Made by a program: the position numbers and the translations under genes
The notes under the pieces: model-generated
Told to the model about the DNA's origin: nothing
Databases searched by the model: none
What the model saw: the letters and a program-made list of their open reading frames with translations, nothing else
Part shown: in pieces, positions 4,213 to 58,568 of the stretch
Layout of the letters: each line of letters starts with the position of its first letter
How positions within the stretch are numbered: the first letter of the stretch is position 1
Source of the DNA: Chloracidobacterium sp.
GTDB taxonomy: Bacteria; Acidobacteriota; Blastocatellia; Pyrinomonadales; Pyrinomonadaceae
Assembly (NCBI GenBank): GCA_031402865.1
Contig: JANNST010000052.1
Coordinates: 4,089 to 68,088 of the forward strand
Reading direction: 5' to 3'
Length of the DNA stretch: 64,000 nt

Positions 4213-4911
4213 ATGTGGCGAAAAGGAACTTCAACTTTTGGAACTTTGACACGCGTTTGCGTGCTTGCAGGCCTTTTCATCGTTTCGCTGTCCAATATCG
4301 GGGCACAGACTGTCGTTGATAAGACCGTTGCGACCGTCAGTGACGGCACCAGGACCGAGTTGATAACCTACTCGGATCTGCGGTGGCAGTTGGCACTGCA
4401 GCCGAATGTCCAGCTTTCCCCGCCAAGCTCGGAAGACCTCAACAGCGCATTGCAATTGCTGATTAACCAGCGGATCTTTGCACTCGAAGCCGAACGGCTG
4501 CCGAGGTCCGCGCCGACAGATAAAGAGATCGAAGCGGAGATGCGTCGAGTTTTAGCTCAGTTTCCGTCAAACGCCGAATTTGAGAGAAGGCTGAGGATTG
4601 TAGGTTTTGAATCTGTTAAAGACAGTAATCTTGAACGGTTGATAACTCAACGAATCAGTATCGAAAAATACCTCGATTTTCGATTTCGATCCTTTATAGT
4701 CAATACTCCAGAGGATGAAGCAAAGTATTACAAAGAGACCTTCGTTCCTGACTTCCGCCGTCGATTTCCGGGCCTGCTGATGCCGACTCTTGATGAAAAA
4801 CGTGCTGAGATCGACGCCCTTCTTACCGAAACAAAAGTTGTTGTAAATATCGAGGCTTTTCTGGACGACGCAAAGAGAAGGGTCGAAATTGTGATCCTCA
4901 ACGCTGTCTAG
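4213..4911 (+). CDS. SurA N-terminal-domain-like periplasmic chaperone (no PPIase domain seen)
   Basis: 232-aa ORF with a signal-like N-terminus (VCVLAGLFIVSLSNIGAQT). DKTVATVSDG...ITYSDL and the helical remainder resemble SurA_N-type proteins. Assignment is by eye only. Confidence 0.5.
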   Translation: MWRKGTSTFGTLTRVCVLAGLFIVSLSNIGAQTVVDKTVATVSDGTRTELITYSDLRWQLALQPNVQLSPPSSEDLNSALQLLINQRIFALEAERLPRSAPTDKEIEAEMRRVLAQFPSNAEFERRLRIVGFESVKDSNLERLITQRISIEKYLDFRFRSFIVNTPEDEAKYYKETFVPDFRRRFPGLLMPTLDEKRAEIDALLTETKVVVNIEAFLDDAKRRVEIVILNAV

Positions 4912-5028: not shown

Positions 5029-6699
5029 ATGACATTGTTTTTTAACACTACGGCTGCGCGGCGATGCGCGTTTGCATTTCTAATCATCGGGACCCTGGTT
5101 ATACAGCCCTTTGCGCAGGCTGCTGCACCCGCGGTTACGCCGCTTTCAACGCTAGAAGGCGAGATTTCGGCGAAAGTCACGGTCGGGACTATCAAAGAAA
5201 TCACCGCAGCCCTTTCGTCCGCGGAAATGCAGGGGCGGGGCACAATGCAGCCCGGCGGCGACAAAGCGGCAAAGTGGATAGCGGACCGATTCCAAAAACT
5301 AGGCCTCAAACCTCTGGGAGACAAGGGTTCGTACCTGCAAAAGATCGATTTCAAGGAAACCTTGTTTACGTCCGACACGATGTTCAAAGTGGGCGATGAA
5401 TCCTTGAAATTTGGCTCTGATTACGCGTTCATCCCGTATTCCAAAGATGATAAGAGTGCGAGCGGCGATCTCGTCTTTGTTGCTTACGGCATTCAGGCGC
5501 CTCAAATCAAGCGCGACGACCTACGAGGAGTATCCATCCGGGGAAAAGTAGTCGTGATGTTGGACGGCCCGCCCGCCAGTATATCCAAAGAGGCTTGGGA
5601 AAAGGGGAACGCCAAGTACGTCATACTAGGGAACATTTTTCGCGAAGGCGCGGCGGCCGTTGTAATAATCGGCCACGGTCGGGAGAAGGACCCGCCTGAG
5701 CTTATCGTCGATTATTTGAGTCGCAGGCAGATTTCCCTCGCGGGCGAAAGCGAACAGTCACAGCCGATACCGCCCATTATCATGGCCGGCAAGGCCGCGG
5801 CTGAAAAATTATTCTCTAAATCGGGCACGACACTTAAAGAAGCTCTTGCAGCCGCGGAGCAAGACAGTTTCAAGCCGATCGATCTGAAACAGACCGCGAA
5901 AATAGTTTCGAAAACAAAGTCTGTTAAGGGCACGGCGAGCAACGTTGTCGGATATATTGAAGGTTCCGATCCAAAACTGAAGGAAGAGGCGGTATTATTC
6001 TCGGCCCACTACGACGCATACGGCACTGAGAATGGCAAGGTTTATTTCGGGGCGGCCGACAATGCCCTTGGCACGGCCGAGATGATGTCGGTGGCGGAGG
6101 CTTACTCACAACTTTCCAGCAAGCCGAAGCGCTCGATGATATTTTTGGCTGTAACCGGAGAAGAATATGGCCTTTACGGTTCGAAGTACTGGGCGAAAAA
6201 TCCGACCTGGAACATCAAGAAGGTTGCCGCTAATCTGAACCTTGACGGCATTGGATCGGAAGTTTACGGGCCCGTAAAGACAATGGTCGGGTACGGGTCA
6301 GAGCATTCCACTATCGGCGTTTTGCTTGATGATCTTGCCAAAACGCTGGGGATAAATGTAATTCCGGATCCGGTGCCGGAAGAAAAAGTGTTTTATCGTT
6401 CGGACCACTATTCGTTTGTCGAACGCGGCGTGCCGGCTCTTATGATCCTCGGTGCTCCGGCCGGCGATAAGGAATTATGGCTTAAGCGTATCGAAGCTTG
6501 GGAAAAGACCGACTATCATCAACCGGGCGACGTCATCCAGCCGAATTGGGCATGGGAAGGTGCCGAAACCGTTGCCGAGACAATGGGCATTCTTGGATGG
6601 CGAATAGCGGACACGGAAACGATGCCGTCATGGCTCGCTGCATCGCGCTTCGCCAAGCTCGAACGCGGAAATACGAAGGAGTTGCCGGAAGAAAAGTAG
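5029..6699 (+). CDS. M28 family metallopeptidase with PA (protease-associated) domain
   Basis: Signal peptide, then a PA-like insert (GKVVVMLDG). M28 metal-ligand contexts are AHYDAYG, GAADNALGTAEMM, TGEEYGLYGS, NLDGIG and SDHYSF. Confidence 0.82.
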   Translation: MTLFFNTTAARRCAFAFLIIGTLVIQPFAQAAAPAVTPLSTLEGEISAKVTVGTIKEITAALSSAEMQGRGTMQPGGDKAAKWIADRFQKLGLKPLGDKGSYLQKIDFKETLFTSDTMFKVGDESLKFGSDYAFIPYSKDDKSASGDLVFVAYGIQAPQIKRDDLRGVSIRGKVVVMLDGPPASISKEAWEKGNAKYVILGNIFREGAAAVVIIGHGREKDPPELIVDYLSRRQISLAGESEQSQPIPPIIMAGKAAAEKLFSKSGTTLKEALAAAEQDSFKPIDLKQTAKIVSKTKSVKGTASNVVGYIEGSDPKLKEEAVLFSAHYDAYGTENGKVYFGAADNALGTAEMMSVAEAYSQLSSKPKRSMIFLAVTGEEYGLYGSKYWAKNPTWNIKKVAANLNLDGIGSEVYGPVKTMVGYGSEHSTIGVLLDDLAKTLGINVIPDPVPEEKVFYRSDHYSFVERGVPALMILGAPAGDKELWLKRIEAWEKTDYHQPGDVIQPNWAWEGAETVAETMGILGWRIADTETMPSWLAASRFAKLERGNTKELPEEK

Positions 6700-18266: not shown

Positions 18267-19388
18267 TCATTTATCAACCATTATATTACCAAAGGCTAAA
18301 CGGCCGCCGTGCTTGCGAACAAACCCTCCACCCGGCAGTTCGACCAACCGGCCGCTTTTCGGGCTTAGAATCAAACGCTCGATCGATTCGATATGTTTTA
18401 GGCTGATAGAGCGGAGATCGCCGCGGTTTGTGCGTAACCAGGATCGGAGCGTCCGGTACAGCTGGGGTTCTGCGAGTAATTTCAGGTCTTTTATCATCAG
18501 ATCTTTTTGGCTGCCATCCGAGATTCCGCTTTCCGCCTTTCGCGTTACGTCTTCGAGGAGACCGGTCGCCACTGCTCCCGGTTCTGACTGGCGCATCAGA
18601 TCGGCTGTTCGAGCAAGCGTTTCTATTATCTTGGGGTTGAGGTCCGTCAGTACCGGTAACAGTATCTTGCGGACGCGGACACGTTTGAATGACAAATCCT
18701 CATTCATGGTGTCGTAACGGTATTCGACGCCGCATTCACGGCAGAAATTCTCCGTGTCCTTACGTCGCGCCCAGGTGAGGAGCGGGCGGATCAGTAGTTG
18801 AGGAGTGGAGGAGAAGGGGAGAAAGGGAGACGGGGAGATGGGGAGACGCGGAGACACGGAGTCATTGTCTTGTCTGATCTCCGCGTTCCCGTGTCTCCGC
18901 GTCTCCGTGTCACGCATTTCTCGCACCGGCCACATTCCGCTCAGCCCGTCGATGCCGCTGCCGCGAATTAGGTTAAGCAAGAAGGTTTCCGCCTGGTCAT
19001 TCATTGTATGAGCGGTCACAACGCCGTATGCTTTTAGGTTTTCGGCCGTGCGGGTAAGGAAATCGTACCTTGCATCACGGGCGTTCTGTTCGAGATTTCC
19101 TTCAGCCGGGATCGGGCCATGTCCGATCGCGAGTTCGAAGCCCCTTTCGGCCGTCAGATGCTTTATAAACTCCTCGTCGGCATCGCTCTCGTGTCCGCGA
19201 AGCTTGTGATTAAAGTGGGCGGCGACCAGCCGGAGTTTTAATTTATCGCGTTTGCGCAGATCGTCGAGAGCGAGCAAAAGGCTTGAGGAATCGGCACCGC
19301 CGGAGACCGCGACGATCAGTGTTTCGTCGGTAAACGGAAGCCCGAGCTTTCGCCACTCGGTGATCAGATCTCGGACAAACTTGTGCAT
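18267..19388 (-). CDS. tilS: tRNA(Ile)-lysidine synthetase, carrying in-frame repeat insertions
   Basis: PP-loop VAVSGGADSS, NHKLRG, HTMNDQAETFLLNLIRGSG, LIRPLL. The ORF stays intact across the repeats at 18555-18590 and 18798-18915. Confidence 0.9.
   Translation of the reverse strand: MHKFVRDLITEWRKLGLPFTDETLIVAVSGGADSSSLLLALDDLRKRDKLKLRLVAAHFNHKLRGHESDADEEFIKHLTAERGFELAIGHGPIPAEGNLEQNARDARYDFLTRTAENLKAYGVVTAHTMNDQAETFLLNLIRGSGIDGLSGMWPVREMRDTETRRHGNAEIRQDNDSVSPRLPISPSPFLPFSSTPQLLIRPLLTWARRKDTENFCRECGVEYRYDTMNEDLSFKRVRVRKILLPVLTDLNPKIIETLARTADLMRQSEPGAVATGLLEDVTRKAESGISDGSQKDLMIKDLKLLAEPQLYRTLRSWLRTNRGDLRSISLKHIESIERLILSPKSGRLVELPGGGFVRKHGGRLAFGNIMVDK
18555..18590. repeat. copy of the CCGGTCGC(C/T)ACTGCTCCCGGTTCTGACTG element inside tilS
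   Basis: 29 nt match 56598-56626 with one mismatch (my count). Translated in tilS as QSEPGAVATG. Confidence 0.8.
18798..18915. repeat. palindromic GGAGAC(G/A)C-octamer element inserted in frame in tilS
   Basis: Arms 18842-18861 and 18879-18911 include a 17-nt exact reverse complement (cgtgtctccgcgtctcc). The flanking GAGGAGTGGAGGAG also occurs at 63031-63044. Translated as MRDTETRRHGNAEIRQDNDSVSPRLPISPSPFLPFSSTPQ. Confidence 0.8.
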
Positions 19389-19420
19389 TTAAGAGATTAT
19401 AGCCGCAAGCCTGAATTAAT

Positions 19421-19502
19421 AGCCGCAAAAAGGCTCAAAAATCCCAAAAAAGATATTGAGTATATTTCTTACTTTTTGCGCTTTCTGTGCCTTTTTGCGG
19501 CT
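19421..19502. repeat. hairpin of the AGCCGCAAAAAGGC.CA.AAA family
   Basis: The left arm agccgcaaaaaggctcaaaaatcccaaaaaag pairs with the right arm actttttgcgctttctgtgcctttttgcggct. The last 2 nt overlap the argH stop codon. Confidence 0.8.
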
Positions 19503-20883
19503 ATTCCATTTTTTTCTTTGCAGCCAAAAGAGCTTCAGCAACGCGTTTGGGTGATGTTCCGCCGGTTTGGGATTTGCTGGCAAGGGTTTGTTCGAGGCTC
19601 AATGCGTTGAAAACATCAGCTTCGACTTGATCCGAGACCTTCGCTAGATCTTCGAGGCTCATTTGGTGCAGTTCTTTATTCTGTTCGATGGCAGAGAGCA
19701 CAATTCGGCCGACGGTGTCATGCGCGGTGCGGAACGGGACGCCTTTTTTTACGAGGTAATCGGCAAGCTCGGTAGCGTTAAGATAGCCGTTGACGGCGGC
19801 TTCTCGAGTTCTCGCTTCGTTTACGGTCAAATTGTTCAGCACAACAGCCGCGACATTCAGGCACATTCGCACCGTGTCTACCGTGTCGAAAACCGCTTCT
19901 TTGTCCTCCTGCGTGTCCTTGTTGTACGCCAGCGGCAGCCCTTTAAGTATTGCAAGCAAAGCGGTTTGATGGCCGAAGATGCGGCCGGCCTTGCCTCGCA
20001 AAAGCTCAAGCGCGTCTGGATTTTTCTTCTGCGGCATGAGGCTCGAACCGGTAGACACGGCGTCGCTGAGAGTAATAAAGCCGAACTCTGTCGTCGCGTA
20101 AATAATCAGGTCTTCGGCAAGCCGCGAAAGGTGTACCATTATGAGCGAACACGCCCCGACGAATTCGACGGCGAAATCTCGGTCCGAAACGGCGTCGAGA
20201 CTGTTTGCCGAAACGGCATCGAATCCGAGTTCGGCCGCAACGGCTTCGCGGTCGATATTGAAACTAGTTCCGGCAAGCGCGGCCGAGCCGAGCGGCAGAA
20301 TATTCATACGTCGCGCGGCGTCTGACAGTCGTTCGAGATCACGGGACAGCATTTCAAAGTACGCCAGACACCAATGGGTCCAAAGCACGGGCTGTGCACG
20401 CTGAAGGTGTGTGTAGCCGGGCAGGACTGCTTCCTTGTGGCGTTCGGCAGCGGCGATCAGTGCAGCCTGCATACCTTTCGCATCATTTCGAATGTGCTCA
20501 ATCTCGTCACGAAGCCAAAGGCGAAACGCCGTCGCAACCTGATCGTTGCGGCTGCGGCCCGTATGGACTTTTTTTCCGGTGTCGCCGATGAGCTCGACAA
20601 GTCTCGATTCGATAAACGAATGCACATCTTCCGCATCGGAATCCATATAGGCGGGATCGCCAGCGGCTAGTTCGAGTATTGTCCGCAACGCTCCTGTTAG
20701 GCCGGCGTTTTCGTCCTCAGTCAATATTCCCGCCCGCAAGAGTCCATTGGCATGAGCAATACTCGCGCGGACATCGGCGGTTAACAGCCGTTTATCAAAA
20801 CGAAAGGAATTGTTGAATTCTGCGAAGGTTTCATCCGGCTTCCCCGTGAATCTGCCGCCCCAAAGCTGATCGGATTTGTCCAT
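19501..20883 (-). CDS. argH: argininosuccinate lyase
   Basis: Fumarate-lyase signature GSSLMPQKKNPD, with full-length ArgH-like sequence (LWGGRF, TGRSRNDQVAT). Confidence 0.97.
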   Translation of the reverse strand: MDKSDQLWGGRFTGKPDETFAEFNNSFRFDKRLLTADVRASIAHANGLLRAGILTEDENAGLTGALRTILELAAGDPAYMDSDAEDVHSFIESRLVELIGDTGKKVHTGRSRNDQVATAFRLWLRDEIEHIRNDAKGMQAALIAAAERHKEAVLPGYTHLQRAQPVLWTHWCLAYFEMLSRDLERLSDAARRMNILPLGSAALAGTSFNIDREAVAAELGFDAVSANSLDAVSDRDFAVEFVGACSLIMVHLSRLAEDLIIYATTEFGFITLSDAVSTGSSLMPQKKNPDALELLRGKAGRIFGHQTALLAILKGLPLAYNKDTQEDKEAVFDTVDTVRMCLNVAAVVLNNLTVNEARTREAAVNGYLNATELADYLVKKGVPFRTAHDTVGRIVLSAIEQNKELHQMSLEDLAKVSDQVEADVFNALSLEQTLASKSQTGGTSPKRVAEALLAAKKKME

Positions 20884-20935
20884 TTGCGTTAATTGTAGAT
20901 TCGAAGCGGCGTCGTTGCCAACTTGTGTTTTTCTT

Positions 20936-20996
20936 CTTTGCTACTTTGCGTCTCTGCGGGAGAAGATTTTTCCCGCAAAGACGCAAAGCTGCAAAG
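20936..20996. repeat. hairpin of CTTTGC/GCAAAG-type units in the argH-argG divergent intergenic region
   Basis: ctttgctactttgcgtctctgcggga (20936-20961) is the near reverse complement of tcccgcaaagacgcaaagctgcaaag (20971-20996). Confidence 0.8.
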
Positions 20997-21059
20997 CAGA
21001 AGAGGCCGTTTGTCGAACAACTTGATTGATCGGGGAATTGCATTTAACCTATTTCGAGA

Positions 21060-24491: not shown

Positions 24492-24657
24492 ACGCAGAGA
24501 CGCAGAGACGCAGAGACGCTGAGGAAGGAAGGATTAGCCACGGATGAACACAGATGGACACAGATGAATCTCGATATTTTCTGGTTTTCCTATCCGTGTT
24601 CATCCGTGTAAATCTGTGGATGAAATTCTTTTCTCTCTGCGTCTCCGCGTCTCGGCG
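24492..24657. repeat. nested palindrome: outer GCAGAGAC octamers, inner CACGGATGAACACAGATG arms
   Basis: The outer arm acgcagagacgcagagacgcagagacgctgag pairs with ctctctgcgtctccgcgtctcggcg. The inner arm ccacggatgaacacagatggacacagatg pairs with tatccgtgttcatccgtgtaaatctgtgg. Confidence 0.85.
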
Positions 24658-24667
24658 GTGAAAAATC

Positions 24668-25927
24668 CTATCCAAGATAACCGCGGAAGTTCGCCGGGAT
24701 CGCCGTGTACTTCGGAAAAAGCTTTGCAAGATCTTTTGTACCGAGGTGTTTGCTGGCAGCTTCGGCAAAGACATCTCGGAAGTCTGTTGTCAATGCCAGG
24801 TCGCGGCCTTCGTTTAGCTGGTCGGGTTTTAGGCCTTTCCAGTCGCCGTAGACCTTGCCGCCCTTTACGGAATTGCCTAGCACGAACATCGCGTTGGCGT
24901 GGCCGTGATCTGTGCCGCGTGATCCATTTTCGCGGGCCGTGCGGCCGAACTCTGACATTGTCAGCAGAACCACGTCGTCCATTCGCTGGCCAAGATCGGT
25001 TGCGAATGCGGCGATAGCGGCGCCGAAATCGCGAAGCAGGTTCGCAAGCTGGCCGCGGGCTCCGCCTTGGTTAACGTGCGTATCCCAGCCGCCAGCTTCG
25101 GCGAATGCTACTTCTAATCCCACACCCGCTTTTATCAACTGCGCGATCTGCATAAGCGAGCGGCCAAGCGGCGTTGTTGGATAGATCGCACCGTTCTCAG
25201 GCTTGTATTTTGCGGGGTTTGCCTGCTTCAAAAAATTGACCGCTTCGAACGTTTCCTTGCCCGTTTCACCCAGGCTGTCCTTTGTTGCCTGGCCGTAAAC
25301 GCCCTCGAAACCGCCCTGCACATTCTTTGTATAAACGCCGGCTTTGATGGCAAAATCGGCGAGGTTCGTCATCGCGATTGACGGTGAACGTCCGTATAGC
25401 GCTCGGGGCAGTTGCTGTGTCATGGCGACGGCGCGAAACGGCGAATCGTCTTTGCCGGACGTCGCCTGCATTGCCCGATTTAACCAGCCGTCACGTGTAC
25501 CCTTGAATCCTGGCGTGCCGGACTCCATATAATCCTGAGCGTCAAAATGCGAACGCGTGTTGTCGGGCGAACCGGCTGAATGAATAACGGCAAGCTGTTT
25601 CGCGGCCCAGAATTTTTCCAGCGGTTTGAGCGACGGATGCAGGCCGAAAAAGCCATCCAGATTCACGGCACCGTCAGTCTTATTGGGTGCGGGAATAGCA
25701 ATCGTGCGGCGGATATTGTAATACTCGCTGTCACCATGCGGAACAACCATATTCAGGCCATCGACCGCTCCGCGCTGGAATATCGTGACCAAAACCTTCT
25801 TTCTACCGTAACCGTTTTTAGTATCGGCCGCGTTTGCAAACTGGTGTAGAAAGTCCGGTGCGGCGGCCATCATGCCGAAACTTGCCAGTCCGATACCGCT
25901 CGTCTTTAGAAAAAATCTTCTGTCCAT
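24668..25927 (-). CDS. DUF1501 domain protein (sulfatase-like fold, Tat signal)
   Basis: Twin-arginine-type N-terminus MDRRFFLKTSGIGLASFG. SEFGRT..ENGS.GTDHGHAN is characteristic of DUF1501. Confidence 0.85.
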   Translation of the reverse strand: MDRRFFLKTSGIGLASFGMMAAAPDFLHQFANAADTKNGYGRKKVLVTIFQRGAVDGLNMVVPHGDSEYYNIRRTIAIPAPNKTDGAVNLDGFFGLHPSLKPLEKFWAAKQLAVIHSAGSPDNTRSHFDAQDYMESGTPGFKGTRDGWLNRAMQATSGKDDSPFRAVAMTQQLPRALYGRSPSIAMTNLADFAIKAGVYTKNVQGGFEGVYGQATKDSLGETGKETFEAVNFLKQANPAKYKPENGAIYPTTPLGRSLMQIAQLIKAGVGLEVAFAEAGGWDTHVNQGGARGQLANLLRDFGAAIAAFATDLGQRMDDVVLLTMSEFGRTARENGSRGTDHGHANAMFVLGNSVKGGKVYGDWKGLKPDQLNEGRDLALTTDFRDVFAEAASKHLGTKDLAKLFPKYTAIPANFRGYLG

Positions 25928-26055
25928 TATTGCTTACCTCTTGTCTTTATTACCGCCCGCGTTCGATCACCCACATTATCTTAGACGTCCAGGAAAGTGG
26001 AATGGTCATTTTTTATTTTTTGCTTTTGCCTTGTGTTCATTATAGATTAGTAAAA

Positions 26056-26871
26056 ATGCGTGAAGAACTAGTAAAACTTATCGTCGAACGTCTGGGGCGT
26101 GATGCGGAAGCCATCAGCCGCGATTTTGCGTCGGAAAGAGAGATTCCAACCCGATTCTGCGCTATCGACGATCTTCTTCCCGAAGAGATCGCCCTTAAAT
26201 TTGACGCGTCGTTTCCCGCATCGAGCGAAATGCGGCTGCTTGACACCTTTCGAGAGAAGAAGTTCACCTCGAAATCACTTGATAAGTTCGACCCGCTGAT
26301 CGCCGATATAACTTTCGCATTTCAGGACGAACGGGTAATCGAAAAGGTTGCTGAGGTGACGGGAATCAAGGACGCAGTCGGTGATCCGCATCTGTACGCC
26401 GGTGGCATAAGCGCAATGGAACGGGGGCATTTTCTTAATCCGCATATAGACAATTCGCACGACGGTGAACAGAAAAACTACCGGGTGTTGAACCTTCTTT
26501 ATTACATTACACCTGATTGGAAAGCCGAAAACGGCGGGAATCTCGAGCTTTGGGATGAGAAGGTAAAGCGGCCGGTCGAGATACCCAGCCTTTTTAACCG
26601 CCTTGTGTTGATGTCAACAAACGACAAGGCGTGGCATTCAGTTAACGAGGTCAAAACCGACGGCACACGCCGCTGTATCTCGAATTACTACTTCTCACCG
26701 CACTCGCCAAACGGATATGAGACGACCCACGTCACATACTTCATGGCCCGCCCCGAACAGAAACTCCGCCGCCTTGTAACAAAAGCCGACAGCGACCTCC
26801 GAACCGTTTTGCGCAAGATAAAGAAAAGCGGTTTTGCGAAGAAGGATGTGTTCGAGGGCAAGGCGAAGTAA
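26056..26871 (+). CDS. 2OG-Fe(II) oxygenase superfamily protein
   Basis: Start trimmed to MREELVKL (26056). The HxD...H context is FLNPHIDNSHD ... KAWHSV, with NGGNLELWD, typical of prolyl-hydroxylase-like dioxygenases. Confidence 0.7.
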   Translation: MREELVKLIVERLGRDAEAISRDFASEREIPTRFCAIDDLLPEEIALKFDASFPASSEMRLLDTFREKKFTSKSLDKFDPLIADITFAFQDERVIEKVAEVTGIKDAVGDPHLYAGGISAMERGHFLNPHIDNSHDGEQKNYRVLNLLYYITPDWKAENGGNLELWDEKVKRPVEIPSLFNRLVLMSTNDKAWHSVNEVKTDGTRRCISNYYFSPHSPNGYETTHVTYFMARPEQKLRRLVTKADSDLRTVLRKIKKSGFAKKDVFEGKAK

Positions 26872-26873
26872 CT

Positions 26874-27515
26874 TGCGAAAGCCCGCACGAAGTAAGGGCG
26901 ATACACTCAACGAACCCAATCATCCGTTTCAAACGGCACATCGTCCTGACAATAGAGAACGTAGTTCACAGCCGCCTCGACGTGGGGCGGCTTCCACAAA
27001 TAGCGCCGACTCCGGCCCCGGGACCAAACTCGCTCCGTAGCTCCGACTAGTCCGAGTTCCCTCAACCGTTTCGTCGCAAATGCTTTCATCGCATCAGCAA
27101 TCCTTTCGGGCTTCGCAGCAGCGGATGCTACTGCATGAACATGATTCGTGCGCACGTTCAGCGCATGGAGCCCATAATTTCTTTGGCCGCACAGCATCTC
27201 AATAGCGTCCGTAACGGCTCGTCGCTGGTCGGTTTTTAGTATTACAGGAGACTGCGCCATTTTTTCCTGCATACGTTCTTGAAGCGGCAGATTCGGATCA
27301 AGTTTTACTGTGCCCGGTACATCACGGTTGCTTCGGTTGATCGAAGATCGGTCATCGCCGTGCAGCCACGTTCCGAATGTCCGAAAGGTCATCAGGTATG
27401 CAAGGGGAAACTCGTTTTCTCCGTAGATATCAAATCCGTAGTCGTCGAGCATTTTGAGTTTGAGCGTGCCTCCTTCACTTGAGCATATCGCCCTTACTTC
27501 GTGCGGGCTTTCGCA
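26874..27515 (-). mobile_element. RAYT-like unit: Y1 (HUH) transposase gene bracketed by inverted 35-nt REP-like repeats
   Basis: TGCGAAAGCCCGCACGAAGTAAGGGCGATACACTC at 26874-26908 has its reverse complement at 27481-27515 (33/35 identical). Confidence 0.7.
26907..27452 (-). CDS. IS200/IS605-family Y1 transposase-like protein (REP-associated tyrosine transposase candidate)
   Basis: HUH motif NHVHAV and a C-terminal Tyr region NYVLYCQ. About 181 aa from the internal ATG 27452. The longer track ORF (to 27611) runs through the flanking repeat and the GH92 3' end. Confidence 0.72.
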   Translation of the reverse strand: MLDDYGFDIYGENEFPLAYLMTFRTFGTWLHGDDRSSINRSNRDVPGTVKLDPNLPLQERMQEKMAQSPVILKTDQRRAVTDAIEMLCGQRNYGLHALNVRTNHVHAVASAAAKPERIADAMKAFATKRLRELGLVGATERVWSRGRSRRYLWKPPHVEAAVNYVLYCQDDVPFETDDWVR

Positions 27516-27522
27516 TAAAAAG

Positions 27523-30500
27523 TCACCTGATAATAATCTCATCCACAAAGATCCACGGATCGCCGCCCGCTCCCGGATGCCATGATGGGATCTTGCCGAA
27601 ATTGTAAGCACGGATGCGAACGTAACGGGCCTTTGCCGGTGAGATCGTTTGAGTGAATTCTTTGATCTTAGGCGTCATCTCGCGTCGCGGAAAGCTGGGT
27701 TTGATCTCGGCGGCCTTAGTGAAATTCGTGCCGTCGCTCGAGGTTTCAAATTCGATCCGGTCCGGCATCCATATCCACGGCCCGGCGACCTGTAAAAAGC
27801 TGCCGCCGAGTTCCTTTATCTCCGTTTCCCGCTTTAGATCGATGATCGCGTCATAAGGTTTGCCCTGCACACCCTGCCATTCGCCGCTGGCGAAATTCAC
27901 CGTGCCGCGAATGCCGTCGATGATCGCGTTATCGCCGCCGCCGGTGTACTGAGTGCTGTAGCCGGAGACGACTTTAACGGTCCAGTCGTTCGGACGTTTC
28001 GCAAAAACTGCGTCGACAATCGGGCTTTCATTTCCTGGAGAAAAGTAAGTAAATGCCTTTACTGTGGCCGCAGCTCGGAGGACAACTGGTTCGAAGTATG
28101 TCTTTGATGACCGCGTTGGAGTGCTGCCGTCGGTCGTATAGAAGATCATCGCGTCTGGATTTGTCTTTCGCATCGTCACGATCGTTTTGTCGTTGAACAG
28201 ACGCTCGCCATCAATCACCGGAACCGCCGTCGCAACTCCGTGTATGCTCGAAAGCGGAAATTCAGTGAATGCGGTTTCAACTGGCTGGTCGATCATCGCA
28301 AATTCAAGTACGCCGCCGCGCATAAGTTCTTCATGGGTGATGAAGGCTTTTTTGTAAGGAGAGCCGTTCAGCTTTGCGTTGAGAATATAGATATTCTTCG
28401 GCGACACATGCTTCGCACGGATGGTAAACGTCTTGCCGTTCTCCAACCGGTATGTCATTTCGGGAAACAACGGTGTGCCGAGTGCATAGACGGGCGAGCC
28501 GGGAGCAACGGGATAGAAGCCACCCGCACTTAATATGTACCACGCGGACATCTGGCCGCAGTCCTCGTTGCCGATCAGGCCGTCGGGCGCGTTCTTGTAG
28601 AACTCGTCCATTATCTTTCGGACGTATTTCTGTGTTTTCCATGGCTCGCCGGCGTAGTTGTAAAGATAGGTGATGTGGTGCGACGGCTCGTTGCCATGGG
28701 CGTATTGGCCGATCAGCCCCGTCAGGTCGGCCTGCTCGCGACCGGCGAGTTTCTGGTCGGTGGTAAAGAGTTCGTCGAGCTTTGCGACAAATTTCTCACG
28801 CCCTCCCATCAGCTCCATCAAACGCGTTACGTCATGCGGGACAAAGAAGGAGTATTGCCACGAGTTGCCCTCGGTAAAGCCGAAGGTCACTTCGTTAGGT
28901 GCAAAAGGCTCGACAAAAACGCCATTCTTTTTCGGACGGAAGAAGCCGGTTTTTGTGTCGAAGAGGTTTTCGAAATGGCGAGCTCTATAACGAAAATCCC
29001 CATCTTTGAATGCCGGTGGCAGTTGTTCAATATTTCGATCTCCGCTCCGCGTTAAGCTCGCTTGCATTTGGGCAATGCACCAATCGTTATATGCATACTC
29101 GAGCGTCCGCGATACCGATTCGTTCTCGTCCTCCATTGAGATGTAGCCGCGTTTTTTGTAGGCGGCGAGGCCGAAGTGGTCGAGTTCGGCGGAGTGTTTG
29201 GCGGCCGCATAGGCTTTTTCGTAGTCGAAGCCTTTGATAGATTTAGCCATCGCGTCGGCGATGACCGAGGCGGCGTGGTAGCCGATCATGGTGTCGGTCT
29301 CTTCGCCCCACAGTTCCCAAACCGGCAGCCGCCCGCCCTGTTCGTAGATGCGGATGAACGTGTTTATAAAATCGACCGTGCGTTTCTGGTCGATGATAGT
29401 GTAAAGCGGATGCGCCGCTCGGAAGGTGTCCCATAGGGAAAAAACGGTGTAGTGGTTCTGAAGCTCCCCTCCTGTCTTAGGAGGGGTGGCCGCGTTTCGC
29501 GGACGGGGTGGTGATCCATGTTGAGCAGTAAGCAACGGTGAGCCCTTCCTCACGGTCGGGCTACTTACACGTGCGGCCTTCTGCATTTCGTAGCCCGGCA
29601 AAGAATGAACCTTTCCGTCGTGCCCTTTGTACCGTCCATCTACATCGTTGAAAACGTTCGGCTGGATTATCGTGTGATACAGCGCCGTGTAAAAATTGGT
29701 CGTCTGATCGTTCGTTCCGCCGGAGACCTCTATTTTGGTTAACTCTTTGTTCCAAGCCGCCTTTGCGTCGGCACGAACCTTGTCGAAATCCCAATGCGGC
29801 AACTCGGCAGCTAGGTTCTTGCGTGCGCCTTCGATAGAGACGTAAGAGATTGCGACCTTGAGCAAAAGGGGTTCTTCCGGCACGGTTTGGAATTGAAGCG
29901 ACAATAACCCGCCGTTGCTGGTTGCTTGAGCCGAGGGACCCATTAAACCAGTTGACTCAAGTCCGTTCCCGATCTGACCGCCTGTAAAAAGCTGCGAGAA
30001 TTCTGCCACGAAATACACCGTTTGGTTTTTCGCCCACGAAGTCGAGCGCCTTACACCTTCGATCCGGCGCTGTGCACCGTTAACTGACACGTCTGTTTGA
30101 AGCCATTTGTCACGCCATCTCAGGTCAAGTATCAAATTGGCGTGATCGGTTCTCGGGAATGTATATCTGTGCAATCCAACTCTTTTTGTAGAGGTCAACT
30201 CGGCAAGAATTCCATCGTCATCCAGCTTCACCGAATAGTATCCGGGCTCAGCTTTCTCATTGGCGTGAGAAAATTTAGACGCATAGCCATTAACCGACTT
30301 GTCGCCTTCTTTCGCGAAGAATTGCGGTTCGCCGACAGTCGGCATAAACAAGATATCGCACCCGTCCGGAATGCCGGTGCCGCTAAGGTGGGTGTGCGAA
30401 AAGCCGTAGATGATGTCGTCGGAGTAGTGATAGCCGCTTGAGCCGTCCCAGTTGTCGATGCGCGTGTCGGGCGAGAGTTGGACCATCCCGAACGGCATCG

Positions 30501-30648
30501 TCGCACCGGGAAAAGTGTGGCCATGGCCGCCGGTGCCGATGAACGGGTTGACGTGGCGGGTGTAGTCACGGGTTTGTCCCGCGACAGCAGGCGCTAGGCA
30601 TAGAAGAACTAAAACGCAGAGACGCTGAGACGCTGAGAGAACTTTCAT
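27523..30648 (-). CDS. GH92 family alpha-mannosidase with C-terminal F5/8 type C (discoidin) domain; in-frame repeat insertion
   Basis: NPFIGTGGHGHTFPGA, GFSHTHLSGTG, FSLWDTFRAAHPL and GNEPSHH are GH92 hallmarks. The C-terminal about 150 aa are discoidin-like. Confidence 0.9.
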   Translation of the reverse strand: MKVLSASQRLCVLVLLCLAPAVAGQTRDYTRHVNPFIGTGGHGHTFPGATMPFGMVQLSPDTRIDNWDGSSGYHYSDDIIYGFSHTHLSGTGIPDGCDILFMPTVGEPQFFAKEGDKSVNGYASKFSHANEKAEPGYYSVKLDDDGILAELTSTKRVGLHRYTFPRTDHANLILDLRWRDKWLQTDVSVNGAQRRIEGVRRSTSWAKNQTVYFVAEFSQLFTGGQIGNGLESTGLMGPSAQATSNGGLLSLQFQTVPEEPLLLKVAISYVSIEGARKNLAAELPHWDFDKVRADAKAAWNKELTKIEVSGGTNDQTTNFYTALYHTIIQPNVFNDVDGRYKGHDGKVHSLPGYEMQKAARVSSPTVRKGSPLLTAQHGSPPRPRNAATPPKTGGELQNHYTVFSLWDTFRAAHPLYTIIDQKRTVDFINTFIRIYEQGGRLPVWELWGEETDTMIGYHAASVIADAMAKSIKGFDYEKAYAAAKHSAELDHFGLAAYKKRGYISMEDENESVSRTLEYAYNDWCIAQMQASLTRSGDRNIEQLPPAFKDGDFRYRARHFENLFDTKTGFFRPKKNGVFVEPFAPNEVTFGFTEGNSWQYSFFVPHDVTRLMELMGGREKFVAKLDELFTTDQKLAGREQADLTGLIGQYAHGNEPSHHITYLYNYAGEPWKTQKYVRKIMDEFYKNAPDGLIGNEDCGQMSAWYILSAGGFYPVAPGSPVYALGTPLFPEMTYRLENGKTFTIRAKHVSPKNIYILNAKLNGSPYKKAFITHEELMRGGVLEFAMIDQPVETAFTEFPLSSIHGVATAVPVIDGERLFNDKTIVTMRKTNPDAMIFYTTDGSTPTRSSKTYFEPVVLRAAATVKAFTYFSPGNESPIVDAVFAKRPNDWTVKVVSGYSTQYTGGGDNAIIDGIRGTVNFASGEWQGVQGKPYDAIIDLKRETEIKELGGSFLQVAGPWIWMPDRIEFETSSDGTNFTKAAEIKPSFPRREMTPKIKEFTQTISPAKARYVRIRAYNFGKIPSWHPGAGGDPWIFVDEIIIR
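29458..29585. repeat. composite palindromic element in frame within the GH92 gene
   Basis: Contains perfect small hairpins cccctcc-tgtctta-ggagggg and ccgcg-ttt-cgcgg. The core matches 57091-57136 in reverse orientation. 29558-29584 is a degenerate look-alike of the RAYT-flanking REP. Confidence 0.7.
30614..30640. repeat. GCAGAGAC/GCTGAGAC octamer repeat inside the GH92 signal-peptide codons
   Basis: acgcagagacgctgagacgctgagaga is translated on the minus strand as LSASQRLCV within MKVLSASQRLCVLVLLCLAPAVAG. Confidence 0.75.
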
Positions 30649-30665
30649 AGCTTTTTAAGGAAGAT

Positions 30666-30750
30666 TTTTGCCCGCGAATAACACGAATTGCCGCGAATAT
30701 CTCTTAAGAGATTTCTTATTCGTGTTTATTCGCGTAATTCGCGGGCAAAA
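30666..30750. repeat. hairpin of the TTTTGCCCGCGAATAA family
   Basis: ttttgcccgcgaataacacgaattgccgcgaata (30666-30699) pairs with tattcgtgtttattcgcgtaattcgcgggcaaaa (30717-30750), between the GH92 start and the GH20 stop. Confidence 0.8.
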
Positions 30751-30753
30751 TTC

Positions 30754-33211: not shown

Positions 33212-34312
33212 CTACAAACCGATTATATCCAAAAACCGTTTTAGTTCATCCGGCAGCGGCAGGACAAACGCTAATTGCTCTTTTGTAACGGGATGTGTGA
33301 ACGAAAGCTTTTCTGCATGCAGGAAAAAACGGCCCATTATTCGGATCGCATTCTTTACGTCTATGTTCGCGACCGTGTTGTCACGGCCTTCGTTATAGGT
33401 TTCGTCACCCACTACGGGGTGATTGATCGACGCAAGATGGACACGAATCTGGTGCGTGCGGCCGGTTTTTATCTCGACCTCGACAAGTGCGAATTTATCG
33501 AACCGCTTGCGGACCTTCCACAATGAAAGGGCGTTTCGGCCATTTGCGGCGACTGTCATTTTGGTGCGGTGCCAGCGGTCGCGGGCCATCGGCCGGTCGA
33601 TGATGCCCGTGTTGTCACGCGGACTTCCGTGAACGAGGGCGAGGTAGCTCTTATAAACCTCGCGCGTACGGAACAGCTCGGACATCGCTTCGTGTATCTC
33701 CTCGCTTTTGGCGACAACGATGAGGCCGGAGGTTTGTTTATCTAAACGGTGGACGATGCCGACGCGACTTGTATTGGTTGCAGAAGCCTGCACGTTAGTA
33801 AGGGCGATATGCTCAACGTTGGCGGTATCGCCCTTACTTCGTGCGGGCTTCTGCGGCAGAACCTCGTCACCTGCTGACGCAGTTGTTTCTGACCTTACAG
33901 GCTGCATCCCGCTAACGCCGAAATGGTAGGCGATTGCGTTTGCCAATGTGCCCGAACTAACGCCGGCACCCGGATGAACGACCAATCCGGCCGGTTTGTT
34001 GATAACGGCAAGATATTCGTCTTCAAAAACAATTTCGAGCGGGATATTTTCGGGCTCGAACCGGGCGGGCGGGGCTTCGGCAAGGTCTACGTCGATGTCA
34101 TCATTTTCGCGCAGTTTATACGATGGTTTTGCCGTCGCCTGGTTAACCAGAACGTCGCCGTCTTCAATCAAACGCTGAAGACGAGACCGCGACCAGCCTT
34201 CGATGTTCTCCGCTAGAAAGGCATCAAGGCGCTTTCCTACTTCAGAACCGGTAATTGCGAAATTTAGTATCGGATTTTCGTCAGGCGATGGCGGTGTGTT
34301 AGCTGGGTTCAA
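33212..34312 (-). CDS. rluD: 23S rRNA pseudouridine synthase (RluD/RluA family), carrying an in-frame REPIN-like insertion
   Basis: S4-like N-terminus (RLDAFL...SRSRLQRLI), catalytic GIVHRLDKQTSGL, and HQIRVH. Confidence 0.9.
   Translation of the reverse strand: MNPANTPPSPDENPILNFAITGSEVGKRLDAFLAENIEGWSRSRLQRLIEDGDVLVNQATAKPSYKLRENDDIDVDLAEAPPARFEPENIPLEIVFEDEYLAVINKPAGLVVHPGAGVSSGTLANAIAYHFGVSGMQPVRSETTASAGDEVLPQKPARSKGDTANVEHIALTNVQASATNTSRVGIVHRLDKQTSGLIVVAKSEEIHEAMSELFRTREVYKSYLALVHGSPRDNTGIIDRPMARDRWHRTKMTVAANGRNALSLWKVRKRFDKFALVEVEIKTGRTHQIRVHLASINHPVVGDETYNEGRDNTVANIDVKNAIRIMGRFFLHAEKLSFTHPVTKEQLAFVLPLPDELKRFLDIIGL
33780..33854. repeat. 75-nt REPIN-like inverted doublet of the RAYT-associated REP, inside rluD
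   Basis: The reverse complement of the right half contains AAGCCCGCACGAAGTAAGGGCGATA, 25/25 identical to the repeat at 26879-26903. The left half is a diverged direct copy. Confidence 0.85.
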
Positions 34313-35111: not shown

Positions 35112-35130
35112 GGTTTCGATAAGCAATGAA

Positions 35131-35219
35131 GGCGGAAACACGAGCCGTAGCGAGTGTGTTCTTCGTCAGGCCGGGTTATTCGTCATTCAGACACACTCCC
35201 TACCGGTCGTGTTTCCGCC
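35131..35219. repeat. GGCGGAAACAC hairpin element, copy 2
   Basis: The left arm is 35131-35160. The right arm 35192-35219 reads CACACTCCCTACCGGTCGTGTTTCCGCC. The loop is 30 nt and contains the lspA stop codon. Confidence 0.85.
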
Positions 35220-35707
35220 TGCTTTTGTTTGCTCAGGAACATATCTATTATCATTAATCCGGCACCCATAACAATCGCCATGTCGGCGACATTGAATGTC
35301 GGGTAGTGCCATGAGCCGAACTGAACATCGATAAAATCGACGACATACCCGAGCCTGATCCGGTCCGTAACGTTCCCGGCGATTCCAGCAAGGAGCAATG
35401 CGAGCGCACCCAAAATACGATCATCGCTGCGCGGAGTTCTCCAAAAGAAATAGAGTACGAGCGCACCGGCGATAAACGCAACTACCGATAATCCCCAGCG
35501 GCCCGCGTCGCCGTGGTCGTCTAACATGCTGAACGCCACGCCCGTATTTTGAGCGTAGGCAAAATTCAAAAAACCTGAAATGAGAGGTATGTCTTCGCCA
35601 AAACGCAGCCGACGCACCGCCCACGCCTTGCTCGCCTGATCGATCATAAAAACCCCGCCGGCAATGGCGAGGTATGCTATTTTCCAAAGAATATCTTTTT
35701 TATTCAC
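35183..35707 (-). CDS. lspA: lipoprotein signal peptidase II
   Basis: LspA motifs N.G.AF and VVDFIDV....PTFNVAD. The last 11 codons ([11 protein letters not shown]) are encoded by the repeat arm. Confidence 0.9.
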   Translation of the reverse strand: MNKKDILWKIAYLAIAGGVFMIDQASKAWAVRRLRFGEDIPLISGFLNFAYAQNTGVAFSMLDDHGDAGRWGLSVVAFIAGALVLYFFWRTPRSDDRILGALALLLAGIAGNVTDRIRLGYVVDFIDVQFGSWHYPTFNVADMAIVMGAGLMIIDMFLSKQKQAETRPVGSVSE

Positions 35708-40319: not shown

Positions 40320-40338
40320 AAAGTTGATGGCATTAAAA

Positions 40339-40408
40339 GGCGGAAACCCGCACGGTAGCAAGGGTGTGATCTTAAAGAGGCACACTCCCTACCGGTCGTG
40401 TTTCCGCC
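40339..40408. repeat. GGCGGAAACAC hairpin element, copy 3 (short loop)
   Basis: The right arm 40381-40408 is identical (28/28) to 35192-35219. The left arm 40339-40368 is more diverged. Confidence 0.85.
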
Positions 40409-40468
40409 TTCGGAGCCAAGGTCCGTGTCAAACTCTAAATTTTATCATCTATCGGAGGAAAAATCCCG

Positions 40469-40786
40469 TTACTCTTCTTCGACTGTACACAGCAGCGGAT
40501 ATTCGCGGGCTTTTGCGAGATTCATCGCCTTTTCGGATTTCATATTAGCTATCTCATAGGGATACACCCCGGCGAGGCCGAGGCCTTCGTTGTGGACCTT
40601 GAGCATTATTGAAAAGGCTTCGGGGGCTGAACGCATGAAGACGTATTCCAGGACGAAAACGACGAATTCCATGGTGGTGAAATCGTCGTTGTGCAGCAGC
40701 ACTTTGAAAAGCTTTGGTTTTTCGAGCTTTGTCTCGCGTTCGGTCAGAACGTCGCCGCCGCGTTCAATGTCGGGAAATTCGGGCAT
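40469..40786 (-). CDS. clpS: ATP-dependent Clp protease adaptor
   Basis: 105 aa. YKVLLHNDDFTTMEFVV.VL is the ClpS core. Confidence 0.9.
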   Translation of the reverse strand: MPEFPDIERGGDVLTERETKLEKPKLFKVLLHNDDFTTMEFVVFVLEYVFMRSAPEAFSIMLKVHNEGLGLAGVYPYEIANMKSEKAMNLAKAREYPLLCTVEEE

Positions 40787-40815
40787 AGGAGAAATTTAAC
40801 ACAATAGGAGTAGTA

Positions 40816-40884
40816 AGCCGCAGAGATGCGCAAAAAGCACAAATATGAAGAGAAATTTTGTGCCTTTTGTGCCTTTTTGCGGCT
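40816..40884. repeat. hairpin of the AGCCGCA.A.A.GC.CAAAA family
   Basis: agccgcagagatgcgcaaaaagcacaaa pairs with tttgtgccttttgtgcctttttgcggct. Same family as 19421-19502 and 14491-14520. Confidence 0.8.
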
Positions 40885-42007
40885 ATATCTTATTGACTTC
40901 GAAGTAGGTCTTAATTGCCTTGTATTTCGCGGAGTCGTTCAGGATATCAAATGCCTTAGCGTAATTCTCCAATCCGTCGATCTTGTGCGTCATCATCTGG
41001 CCGAGCCAGCCAAGGTGCATTGCTTCGCATAGGGCCAGATCTTTAACGCCCATTTCGAAATGCTCGCGGCCGGCGTTCACCGTGCCGACCATCGCGCGGT
41101 TGCCGAGCACGAACATCTGATTGATCTTGTCAGACGGGACCTGATCGGTTTTCCGTTCACCGCCCGTGACGGAGGCGAGGATCAGAATACCGTTTTCGTT
41201 CAATGTCTGCATCGCGTCAAAGATGATCGGCGAATAGCCTGTGCATTCAAACACGAGGTCGTACTGATCGTATTTTTTTATCGATTCGGTAATCGGAAGG
41301 TCATCCGTCGAGTCGTACGTCGCGCCTATCGCTAAACACAATTCGGCGTTCAGATAGCCGTCGCCGCTCTGCTTTCCAAAGCTGTGCACTTCGTAACCGC
41401 GCATCCTCAACGCCATTACCGTCAGCAATCCGACGTTTCCCGTTCCCAACACCGCAGCCGTTTTTGGGTGCCAAATCTTGAGGCGTTCCTGAATATCGCT
41501 CGCTTGTTTGAGCCCTTTCTCGATTATCGAAAGCGGTTCAAGCAGAACCCCTATCTCCGCAATCGGCGCCGGTATCCCTACCAAAAAATCGGCGTCTTCG
41601 ACGTAGAAGTCGGCCATGTAGCCATGCAGGCGTGAGATGCCGCGCTCGAAATACTTATCGTCAGTCGTAAAATCCTGCTCGCCGATCTTGTCATAAATGC
41701 TTGAACCGCGCGGGCGCCGCACCGTAGCTACAACGTAATTACCTGCCTCAAATTCCTTAACATTTTCACCCGTCTCAACAACGCGACCAAAATTTTCGTG
41801 GCCAAGTACAAGATAATCAAAGCCCTTTGGCGCGACGCCGTATTCGCCATTGTTGATCTCGCGGTCGGTGCCGCACGCTCCCACGCGAAGCACTTCGACC
41901 AATACGCCGCGTCCGTTTTTTATTTCACTCAATTCCGGTTTTTTCATCTCGATGAGATGAACACTGTTCATTTTTTCTGGAATTACCGCAATCGCCTTCA
42001 TGTTCAT
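40883..42007 (-). CDS. zinc-dependent medium-chain dehydrogenase, glucose 1-dehydrogenase-like
   Basis: VGACGTDREI, LGHENFG and the Rossmann motif VLGTGNVGL. The overall layout resembles archaeal-type glucose dehydrogenases. The substrate is not established. Confidence 0.7.
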   Translation of the reverse strand: MNMKAIAVIPEKMNSVHLIEMKKPELSEIKNGRGVLVEVLRVGACGTDREINNGEYGVAPKGFDYLVLGHENFGRVVETGENVKEFEAGNYVVATVRRPRGSSIYDKIGEQDFTTDDKYFERGISRLHGYMADFYVEDADFLVGIPAPIAEIGVLLEPLSIIEKGLKQASDIQERLKIWHPKTAAVLGTGNVGLLTVMALRMRGYEVHSFGKQSGDGYLNAELCLAIGATYDSTDDLPITESIKKYDQYDLVFECTGYSPIIFDAMQTLNENGILILASVTGGERKTDQVPSDKINQMFVLGNRAMVGTVNAGREHFEMGVKDLALCEAMHLGWLGQMMTHKIDGLENYAKAFDILNDSAKYKAIKTYFEVNKI

Positions 42008-42023
42008 AATAATAAATTTACCT

Positions 42024-42086
42024 CGTTTAGAAGCGGGCTTGCCCGCTGTAAGATAATTGACGCCCGGGCAAGCCCGCTTCTAAACG
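42024..42086. repeat. perfect 22-bp inverted repeat CGTTTAGAAGCGGGCTTGCCCG
   Basis: 42024-42045 and 42065-42086 are exact reverse complements. It lies between the GH63-like stop and the dehydrogenase start. Confidence 0.85.
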
Positions 42087-42119
42087 GCGGATCTTTTTTT
42101 CAAAGGTTTCTCAAAAATG

Positions 42120-58503: not shown

Positions 58504-58568
58504 AGTCGAGAGTGGAGAGTCAAGAGTCTTGAGTCGGACGTTCTGCCCAAGACTCACGACTCTCGACT
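58504..58568. repeat. GAGTCGAGAG-family palindrome upstream of cdaA
   Basis: agtcgagagtggagagtcaagagtcttgagtc pairs with gactcacgactctcgact. Confidence 0.75.

Follow-up and report, generated by a model that had tools for sequence, protein, structure and literature searches.

An in-frame REPIN-type doublet in the rluD-like gene of a Chloracidobacterium sp. and signs of recurrent palindromic repeats in the same loop

In the rluD-like gene of a Chloracidobacterium sp., we identified a 75-nt palindrome made of two inverted copies of a repetitive extragenic palindromic (REP) sequence, which is read through in frame with its host gene. The window analysed here is a stretch of 64,000 nt from assembly GCA_031402865.1 (contig JANNST010000052.1, positions 4,089-68,088 of the forward strand), in which the palindrome occupies positions 33780-33854 and its host gene positions 33212-34312 on the minus strand. 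We consider it probable (about 0.8) that this element is a genuine REPIN, i.e. a REP doublet, of the family that flanks a nearby gene for a REP-associated tyrosine transposase (RAYT), that it sits in a loop of hypervariable length in an intact RluD-like gene and is translated with it, and that it is one instance of a lineage-wide process. It would thus be a clean, transposase-linked case of a selfish palindrome read inside the open reading frame (ORF) of an essential-type RNA-modification enzyme, in a free-living soil phylum.

A REP doublet read through in the rluD-like gene

The sequence at 33780-33854 is GCAGAAGCCTGCACGTTAGTAAGGGCGATATGCTCAACGTTGGCGGTATCGCCCTTACTTCGTGCGGGCTTCTGC. An earlier note, drawn from the letters of the window, had described a palindrome here with one half carrying a REP core found at 26879-26903 and the other half slightly diverged, and our analysis bears out this description. 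The repeat search returned two inverted arm pairs, 33780-33794 with 33840-33854 (15 nt, 93%) and 33797-33809 with 33826-33838 (13 nt, 100%). Folded as single-stranded DNA, the element reaches -34.3 kcal/mol against -12.9 +/- 2.4 kcal/mol for 200 shuffles, none of which is as good (0/200; z = -9.1). The window contains three exact copies of the 25-mer AAGCCCGCACGAAGTAAGGGCGATA (26879-26903 (+), 27486-27510 (-) and 33826-33850 (-)), for a chance expectation of zero. BLAST stretches the match between rluD and the 26879 locus to 26 nt and returned no further copy of the rluD REP in the 64 kb beyond these three loci.

In the sense of the gene, the 5′ arm (arm 1, 33825-33854, minus strand) is a canonical class-a REP that encodes QKPARSKGD(T) and is identical to 26879-26904 over 26/26 nt and to 27486-27510 over 25/25 nt. 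A central loop of 15-16 nt (33810-33824, ...CCGCCAACGTTGAGCA... in gene sense) separates it from the 3′ arm (arm 2, 33780-33809, plus strand), both arms being of ~30 nt. Arm 2 is a diverged REP that encodes IALTNVQASA; it differs from arm 1 by one substitution (C-to-T) and by a 1-nt insertion with substitution, reading CACG-TT-AGTAAGG where the right arm reads CACG-A-AGTAAGG. Counting the terminal T...A of the family, the REPIN would span 33779-33855. A central loop of the CAACGTTGA type is also present in dispersed REPIN copies of four loci from related genomes (L009, L016, L029 and L106; loci are given here by L numbers and RluD orthologues by P numbers). Sharing the termini TGCAG...CTGCA, the arm and the loop with these copies, the palindrome is, judged from its sequence, a bona fide member of the dispersed REPIN family, as the earlier note had proposed in calling it a REPIN-type doublet of the RAYT-associated repeat.

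The minus strand is read through without a stop inside the ORF as ...DEVLPQKPARSKGDTANVEHIALTNVQASATNTSRVGIVHRLDK / ...GDEVLPQKPARSKGDTANVEHIALTNVQASATNTSRVGIVHRLDK, the doublet itself translating as (P)QKPARSKGDTANVEHIALTNVQASA, and the tryptic peptide expected from the insert by translation is GDTANVEHIALTNVQASATNTSR. Directly upstream of the REPIN in gene sense, positions 33857-33895 (minus strand) encode RSETTASAGDEVL and look like a decayed REP of a second family (class c, of the 'SEPPASAGG' type). Its codons GAA ACA ACT GCG TCA GCA GGT GAC correspond to GAA CCG CCT GCG TCA GCG GGT GGT in L207, where an intact class-c hairpin at the same place of the loop encodes KAEPPASAGGTDEG. The rluD loop of the window appears to be composite, with an older decayed class-c REP beside a young class-a REPIN. 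Rfam gave no family at the rluD site, only a tRNA elsewhere in the window. Scanning the surroundings of rluD for terminators and promoters returned no more than chance would give, and no T-run follows the hairpin.

The host gene is an intact ORF of 366 aa for an RluA-family 23S rRNA pseudouridine synthase. Its product carries an S4 domain (PF01479, 2.3e-9) and a PseudoU_synth_2 domain (PF00849, 3e-34), and the same Pfam domain and gene continue on either flank of the palindrome. With 295 bits, the protein is above the TIGR00005 cutoff of 192.7; with 248 bits, it is below the cutoff of 351 for the RluD equivalog NF008385, which is yet its best-scoring named equivalog. Inserts of this kind inflate protein length, depress family-model scores and can mislead annotation and alignment, and we regard the sub-cutoff RluD score as a case in point; with such a score, 'RluD-like' seems to be the safe name. 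The best relatives in the PDB are E. coli RluD (7bl5_7/1v9f_A, E 3e-54), with which GIVHRLDK is aligned, and the catalytic HRLD motif is present. More than 100 columns are invariant over 38 RluD orthologues, and the window ORF is open with all conserved motifs. These observations agree with the earlier claim of read-through in an intact gene, and we infer that the enlarged enzyme would remain active.

The expanded segment sits between the NAxxxH(F/Y) helix (NAIAYHF here) and the strand that carries the catalytic HRLD. From ...AYHF to RVGIVHRLDK the window protein has 51 residues, close to the 52 or so given in the earlier note. The dozen or so residues that the note gave for E. coli RluD were, if anything, an overestimate: in the PDB alignment, query 131-180 corresponds to E. 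coli RluD 123-128, i.e. a segment of 48 residues versus 4.

The putative mobiliser in trans is encoded 6.3 kb from the palindrome by a RAYT-like gene (26907-27455, minus strand, 182 aa; Y1/HUH tyrosine transposase). It lies between a REP at its 3′ end (26874-26903, plus strand, 3 nt past the stop) and a REP at its 5′ end (27486-27515, minus strand, 30 nt upstream of the ATG), which are inverted and 30/30 identical. On its own, the protein scores weakly with NF047646 REP_Tyr_transpos (E 2e-4, 21 bits vs a cutoff of 80), with IS200 (E 4e-4) and with PF01797 (E 0.0026, 18.3 bits vs a cutoff of 23). It belongs to a large family (921 matches), labelled 'REP element-mobilizing transposase RayT' by JGI, and 23/24 aligned sequences (the protein itself and 23 members 57-88% identical) match PF01797 at E <= 0.01. 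H105 and H107 (NHVHAV) and Y165 are invariant in the alignment. PDB searches with the single sequence and with a profile returned no match. The AlphaFold2 model reaches a predicted local distance difference test (pLDDT) score of 76.5, with a core above 90, and its top 30 Foldseek matches in the PDB are all TnpA of ISDra2, IS608 or IS200, or E. coli TnpA-REP (4er8_A). We base the RAYT assignment on the family-level Pfam matches, the invariant HUH and Tyr motifs and the TnpA/TnpA-REP fold matches; by these criteria, the product of 26907-27455 is a RAYT-like Y1/HUH enzyme, and its gene shows the classical order REP-RAYT-REP.

In another genome (L208, GCA_041749635.1), a different Y1_Tnp/RAYT gene (3833-4411, 192 aa, clear PF01797 match) sits 1.1 kb downstream of an rluD that also bears a class-a REP. 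A Y1 transposase gene is found within 1-8 kb of a REP-bearing rluD in three genomes.

Dispersal of the repeat and occupation of the RluD loop

The best 120 orthologues are all Pyrinomonadaceae-like and range from 297 to 382 aa. Length variation in the body of the protein is localised to one loop; apart from this loop, only the N terminus is variable. The nearest relatives (P0002, P0006 and P0008; 88.1% DNA identity outside the loop for L001/P0002) have a 31-aa loop and no REP, and no REP-free orthologue with an equally long homologous segment is seen among them, which upholds the proposal of an insertion. These relatives are fully syntenic with the window (lgt-rluD-GH20-GH92-2OG oxygenase), and in them no RAYT gene separates GH92 from the oxygenase gene. 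A RAYT-like ORF surrounded by five REPs occupies this same syntenic site in L003 (GCA_964422815.1, 77.6% identical), whose rluD holds a class-a REP at the same place and in the same frame as in the window. Presence and absence of the repeat in rluD thus follow those of the transposase: L001 is without both the REPIN and the RAYT gene, and L003 has a RAYT-like ORF and a class-a REP. A class-a copy in rluD does not always accompany the family, and perhaps the RAYT: L207 (P0003) has only class c in rluD and carries an exact class-a REP at 6497-6521, right after GH92, where the window has a REP that flanks its RAYT gene.

An exact-pattern scan over one genome per GTDB species found the class-a REP in at least 118 stretches, and among the matches listed (titles of the first 80) all titles are those of metagenome-assembled genomes (MAGs) from Pyrinomonadaceae, Blastocatellia or other Acidobacteriota. 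Several of these MAGs have ten or more class-a loci among the matches listed; SE1515_concoct.bin.35 and VAR_78_metabat_320 are examples of MAGs with many loci. About 200 copies were collected among the matches listed, most commonly as a +/- doublet with 15-16 nt between cores, a geometry that the rluD element shares. The full-length REPINs, defined as TGCNG...CNGCA (n=23, from other Pyrinomonadaceae MAGs), are 70-79 nt long, with 75 nt in 9 copies and 76 nt in 6. They have symmetric arms, and many contain a CAACGTTGA-type loop. No consistent target-site duplication was seen around these 23 elements (0-3 nt matches, A/T-rich flanks). The class-a core reads CGAAGTAAGGGCG, with GTAA, and some variants of the family read CGTAGTAAGG; a second palindrome family of the window, at 40337-40410, carries CGGTAGC.

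About a tenth of the sampled class-a copies are inside long ORFs. We screened the ~200 copies for an open frame of at least 50 codons on each side, which yielded many candidates, and checked ten of them with Pfam: in all ten genes, from related MAGs, the REP is read through and the domain match spans it. The hosts are PyrD (dihydroorotate dehydrogenase), ThiC, MetRS, TatD, IleRS, GluRS, ThiD, a PALP enzyme, an amidohydrolase and an Eco57I-type methylase. The usual translation of the REP is (Q)KPARSKGE, with SPHEVRA from a second frame at times. By direct reading, the core has a stop (TAA) in one of the six frames only, which, together with a commonest length of 25 codons, accounts for the frequency of in-frame survivors.

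Some host genes contain side-by-side clusters of different repeat classes (L056 1284-2246, L100 206-2011, L017 211-2481, L033 5722-6879): KPAREQGRY with KPARSKGE in ThiD, KPARSKGE with KTAREQGRY and PPANAGGSD in GluRS, and a duplicated block in TatD. This clustering suggests that certain permissive sites gather several repeats, or that repeats draw one another to them.

The RluD loop itself measures 11-51 aa in 67 orthologous loci and up to 69 aa in 116 orthologous proteins. Regular-expression matching assigned recognisable repeat-derived loop peptides in 95/116 of these proteins to five classes. Class a (QKPARSKGD...ALT.V.ASA) comprises the window and also P0016, P0017, P0029, P0059 and P0101, class b reads QKPAREQGR...ALA.A.ASA, class c (S)EPPASAGG...PPAHAGGSD and class d SPPYEGGV..ASADGVV, while class e reads ISDLGF...SKIQNLKS and includes 11-aa forms such as EIRNPQSAIRN. 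We consider these classes as dispersed repeats because each also occurs outside rluD, with 18 such occurrences of class b, 4 of c, 5 of d and 16 of e in the sampled loci. Some loops still fold well: that of L122 (class b) is a perfect 33-bp stem (-46.8 kcal/mol, z = -13), the class-c loops of L128, L133, L141 and L158 have z from -4.6 to -9, and class e in L132 has z = -7.4. The other loops are visibly decayed palindromes. On a neighbour-joining tree of loop-masked RluD proteins, the classes are scattered, with 57 changes of loop class by parsimony, and in the tight 'GVSGMQPV...NTS' clade, whose members share 79% or more identity with the window protein, loops of classes a, b, c and d are intermingled with loops of no class. 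The RluD loop appears to have been serially colonised by at least five palindromic families. With its five families, its fresh and decayed copies and its unequal arms, it would offer a natural time series, and could inform on how REPs choose their targets, whether they replace one another and what share of loop diversity is made by repeats.

Origin and age of the insert

By analogy with TnpA-REP and the IS200/IS605 transposases, we consider it most likely that the REPIN arrived, or was renewed, through a RAYT acting in trans, by a hairpin-guided cut-and-join of single strands; the absence of target duplication would be consistent with IS200/IS605-like chemistry. The insert would be co-translated as ~25 extra residues (QKPARSKGDTANVEHIALTNVQASA) in a flexible hydrophilic loop that does not destroy the enzyme, and would be retained as nearly neutral. 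Its persistence is probably favoured by the commonest length of 75 nt, i.e. 25 codons, by a REP core devoid of stops in five of six frames, and by a loop that seems to tolerate almost any hydrophilic filler. In Pyrinomonadaceae, in-frame fixation of REPs and REPINs in housekeeping genes appears to be routine.

Several points weigh against this reading. The window has only three REP loci, and the multi-copy status of the family is judged from related MAGs; the window genome is not among the matches listed from the class-a scan, and its copies were counted in the 64 kb only. We found no empty-site allele whose flanks were the same in other respects: the loop of L001 is a different one of 31 aa rather than a clean empty site, so the inserted length and its junctions are approximate. 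The AlphaFold2 model of the RluD-like protein, built with 38 close homologues, is too poor to place the loop on the surface (mean pLDDT 59; loop 136-182 below 50 and without secondary structure). Mobilisation of the rluD REPIN by the RAYT of 26907-27455 would follow from their association only. Finally, the 1-nt indel of the arm is common to distant rluD copies and seems to fit an old insertion better than a fresh one.

This last point bears on the age of the two arms. The class-a rluD copies are those of the window, L003, L208 and L209, the last three being 77.6%, 77.1% and 70.1% identical to the window in rluD DNA outside the loop. All four agree at 24/24 nt in the core of the gene-sense 5′ arm, for which the neutral estimate is ~0.002 or less. 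Decay of the 3′ arm is seen in L003 and L208, and all four copies have its +1-nt form, which the symmetric intergenic REPINs do not show. As the arms appear to differ in age, a single recent insertion may not account for the element. A tentative proposal, to which we give some credence, is that the loop preceding the catalytic strand serves REPs and REPINs of Pyrinomonadaceae as a recurrent landing pad, precise to the nucleotide, in which at least five families have entered, replaced or overwritten one another; re-insertion, or overwriting driven by the RAYT or by conversion, would keep the 5′ REP at the master sequence while the rest decays. If so, REP turnover would continuously generate protein loop sequence, and resident hairpins would be the targets of incoming REPs. 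It is rather doubtful, though worth weighing, that a single REPIN related to classes a and b (a'/b-like) instead entered the loop before the Pyrinomonadaceae split and had its 5′ arm overwritten repeatedly from the live class-a copies of the genome, by short-tract gene conversion or by RAYT-mediated replacement. The 24/24 identity of the 5′ arm among rluD genes only 70-78% identical and the +1-nt 3′ arm unseen in intergenic REPINs would both be expected under such a history, in which the 3′ arm decays because conversion to the canonical form would shift the frame. The window and L003 (class a) and L202 and L203 (class b) also share an occupancy of exactly 25 codons and a common 3′ junction before AAY-ACA-AGC-CGC; the central loop and 3′ arm of the window are in register with the class-b copy of L202, whereas the 5′ arm of the window is wholly of class a and has a 1-nt shift that is compensated. 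Against this stand the perfect arms of L122 (b) and the nearly perfect ones of L209 (a; one indel and one substitution), which look freshly inserted; P0002, P0006 and P0008, which are without trace of an a/b element and call for several clean losses; and the L003 rluD arm (CGAAG), which is unlike most nearby REP variants of its own genome (CGCAG). The state of the L122 and L209 palindromes would favour fresh insertion, and the shared +1-nt arm common descent.

Conservation of the 5′ arm could also be read as exaptation, the hairpin (in DNA or mRNA) or the peptide being co-opted, e.g. to regulate, from within the gene, the expression of rluD or the stability of its mRNA, or to form an extension beside the active site in contact with RNA or the ribosome, with selection keeping the 5′ arm. 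Indeed, this arm is conserved at the DNA level in divergent genomes, including at synonymous sites, and the insert is immediately upstream of the catalytic HRLD strand and is kept in most orthologues. We find this improbable, as five unrelated families with differing peptides, lengths (11-69 aa) and decay argue for tolerance and not for a specific function; the same REP is, moreover, scattered through unrelated enzymes, and the site has neither a terminator-like T-run nor an Rfam family. More remote still is an artefact, that is, a palindrome mis-assembled at a repeat or a dead rluD that happens to stay open. The source is probably a MAG, and repeats are classic sites of mis-assembly. Nevertheless, the identical 366-aa protein (P0001) is present in NCBI and in Logan, and contigs that Logan built independently from two runs (SRR20217205, SRR20217196) match the window at 100% identity over the entire gene. 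So far as assemblies can tell, this excludes both mis-assembly and a hidden frameshift, and mis-assembly and pseudogene were rejected on these two assemblies. In addition, one Pfam domain and one gene extend over both flanks, the 366-aa ORF keeps every conserved motif, and orthologous in-frame copies are found in independent MAGs.

Precedents and other repeats of the window

REPIN-RAYT systems, in which two inverted REPs form a long hairpin, were reportedly described by Bertels and Rainey in PLoS Genet in 2011. As in these systems, the inverted REP pair of the window forms a hairpin, the RAYT is flanked by the same REPs, and the repeat is dispersed in related MAGs. Unlike REPINs, which are extragenic by definition, the window copy is coding, inside the rluD frame, and the window RAYT, from a subfamily with an N-terminal extension, does not by itself reach the cutoffs of Pfam and NCBIfam. 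The predicted fold and the conserved HUH and Tyr motifs resemble those of the IS200/IS605 TnpA and of E. coli TnpA-REP (PDB 2xma, 2vjv, 4er8), enzymes that recognise DNA hairpins and leave no target duplication, as also seen for the 23 REPINs here. Their similarity to the window RAYT is limited to TM-scores of 0.44-0.48 and 9-14% identity, and the window enzyme is predicted only.

Other bacteria are already known to carry REPs and REP dimers in frame within genes. RAYT-associated REPs, as single units or dimers, are found in frame inside conserved genes, including those for tRNA synthetases and repair genes, where they encode 20-30 aa (Di Nocera, De Gregorio, Rocco 2013, BMC Genomics 14:522, PMC3733652). 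The rluD element, a dimer of 25 aa, resembles these GTAG/CGTC dimers, and differs from them by its host lineage (Pyrinomonadaceae, Acidobacteriota) and by belonging to another sequence family, with GTAA instead of GTAG. Neither RluD nor the reuse of one loop by several families is in the main text or supplement of PMC3733652, and our literature search on Acidobacteria, RluD or a multi-family hotspot of intragenic REPs found only general precedents. Within the literature reached, the repeated occupation of a single loop and the 24/24 identity of the 5′ arm between rluD genes only 70-78% identical appear to go beyond what is described.

The earlier note had likened the insert to the Rickettsia palindromic elements (RPEs), selfish repeats that are tolerated in frame in unrelated housekeeping genes (Ogata et al. 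2000; summarised in PMC10969869 and PMC3733652). The first RPEs described (RPE-1) are ~150 bp long. The comparison is apt as an analogy, the palindrome being in frame and the host ORF intact in rluD and in ten host genes of related MAGs; the intragenic GTAG/CGTC dimers are a closer precedent. Here, the element is of 75 bp, is paired with an identifiable transposase and resides in a free-living soil host, not in a reduced intracellular genome. Judged on taxon and length, membership in RPE-1 to RPE-10 is unlikely. The case extends an RPE-like phenomenon beyond reduced endosymbionts, and shows it to be lineage-wide in Pyrinomonadaceae.

The window genome is rich in palindromic repeats. In the GH92 gene (27523-30648), the segment 29431-29595 (minus strand) reads in frame as YEMQKAARVSSPTVRKGSPLLTAQHGSPPRPRNAATPPKTGGELQ. 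Its DNA starts with TGCAGAAGGCCGCACGTGTAAGTAGCCCG, like the start of REP a/b, and contains a CCACCCCTCC...GGAGGGGAG hairpin. L001 shows conservation of this segment, which has the look of an older insert derived from a repeat, here in a gene of the window other than rluD. A second REPIN-like family has two copies, at 35125-35225 and 40337-40410, with arms AAGGCGGAAAC(A/C)CG..CGGTAGC.AG.GTG, their second arms being nearly identical. At 35125-35225, the repeat covers the stop codon of lspA (35183) and the start of lgt (35141), so the C-terminal tail of LspA is repeat-encoded. The second lies in the spacer downstream of ileS (40320-40895), which holds a class-a REPIN in CAVSZR010000006.1 (L031 5091-5166); this spacer is a second case of one site with different families in related genomes.

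Next to the RAYT-like gene, the listed ORF of a 2OG-Fe(II) oxygenase (25834-26871, plus strand, 345 aa) starts ~75 codons upstream of the starts of its homologues, which are of 270-271 aa in L001, L003 and L202; its N-terminal extension is probably non-coding. Nine more long inverted repeats, of several unrelated sequences, have arms of 17-41 nt and spacers of 3-36 nt. They are located at 2279-2371, 18814-18918, 19418-19505, 20931-21001, 24539-24608, 30663-30753, 42011-42099, 58504-58568 and 63025-63119.

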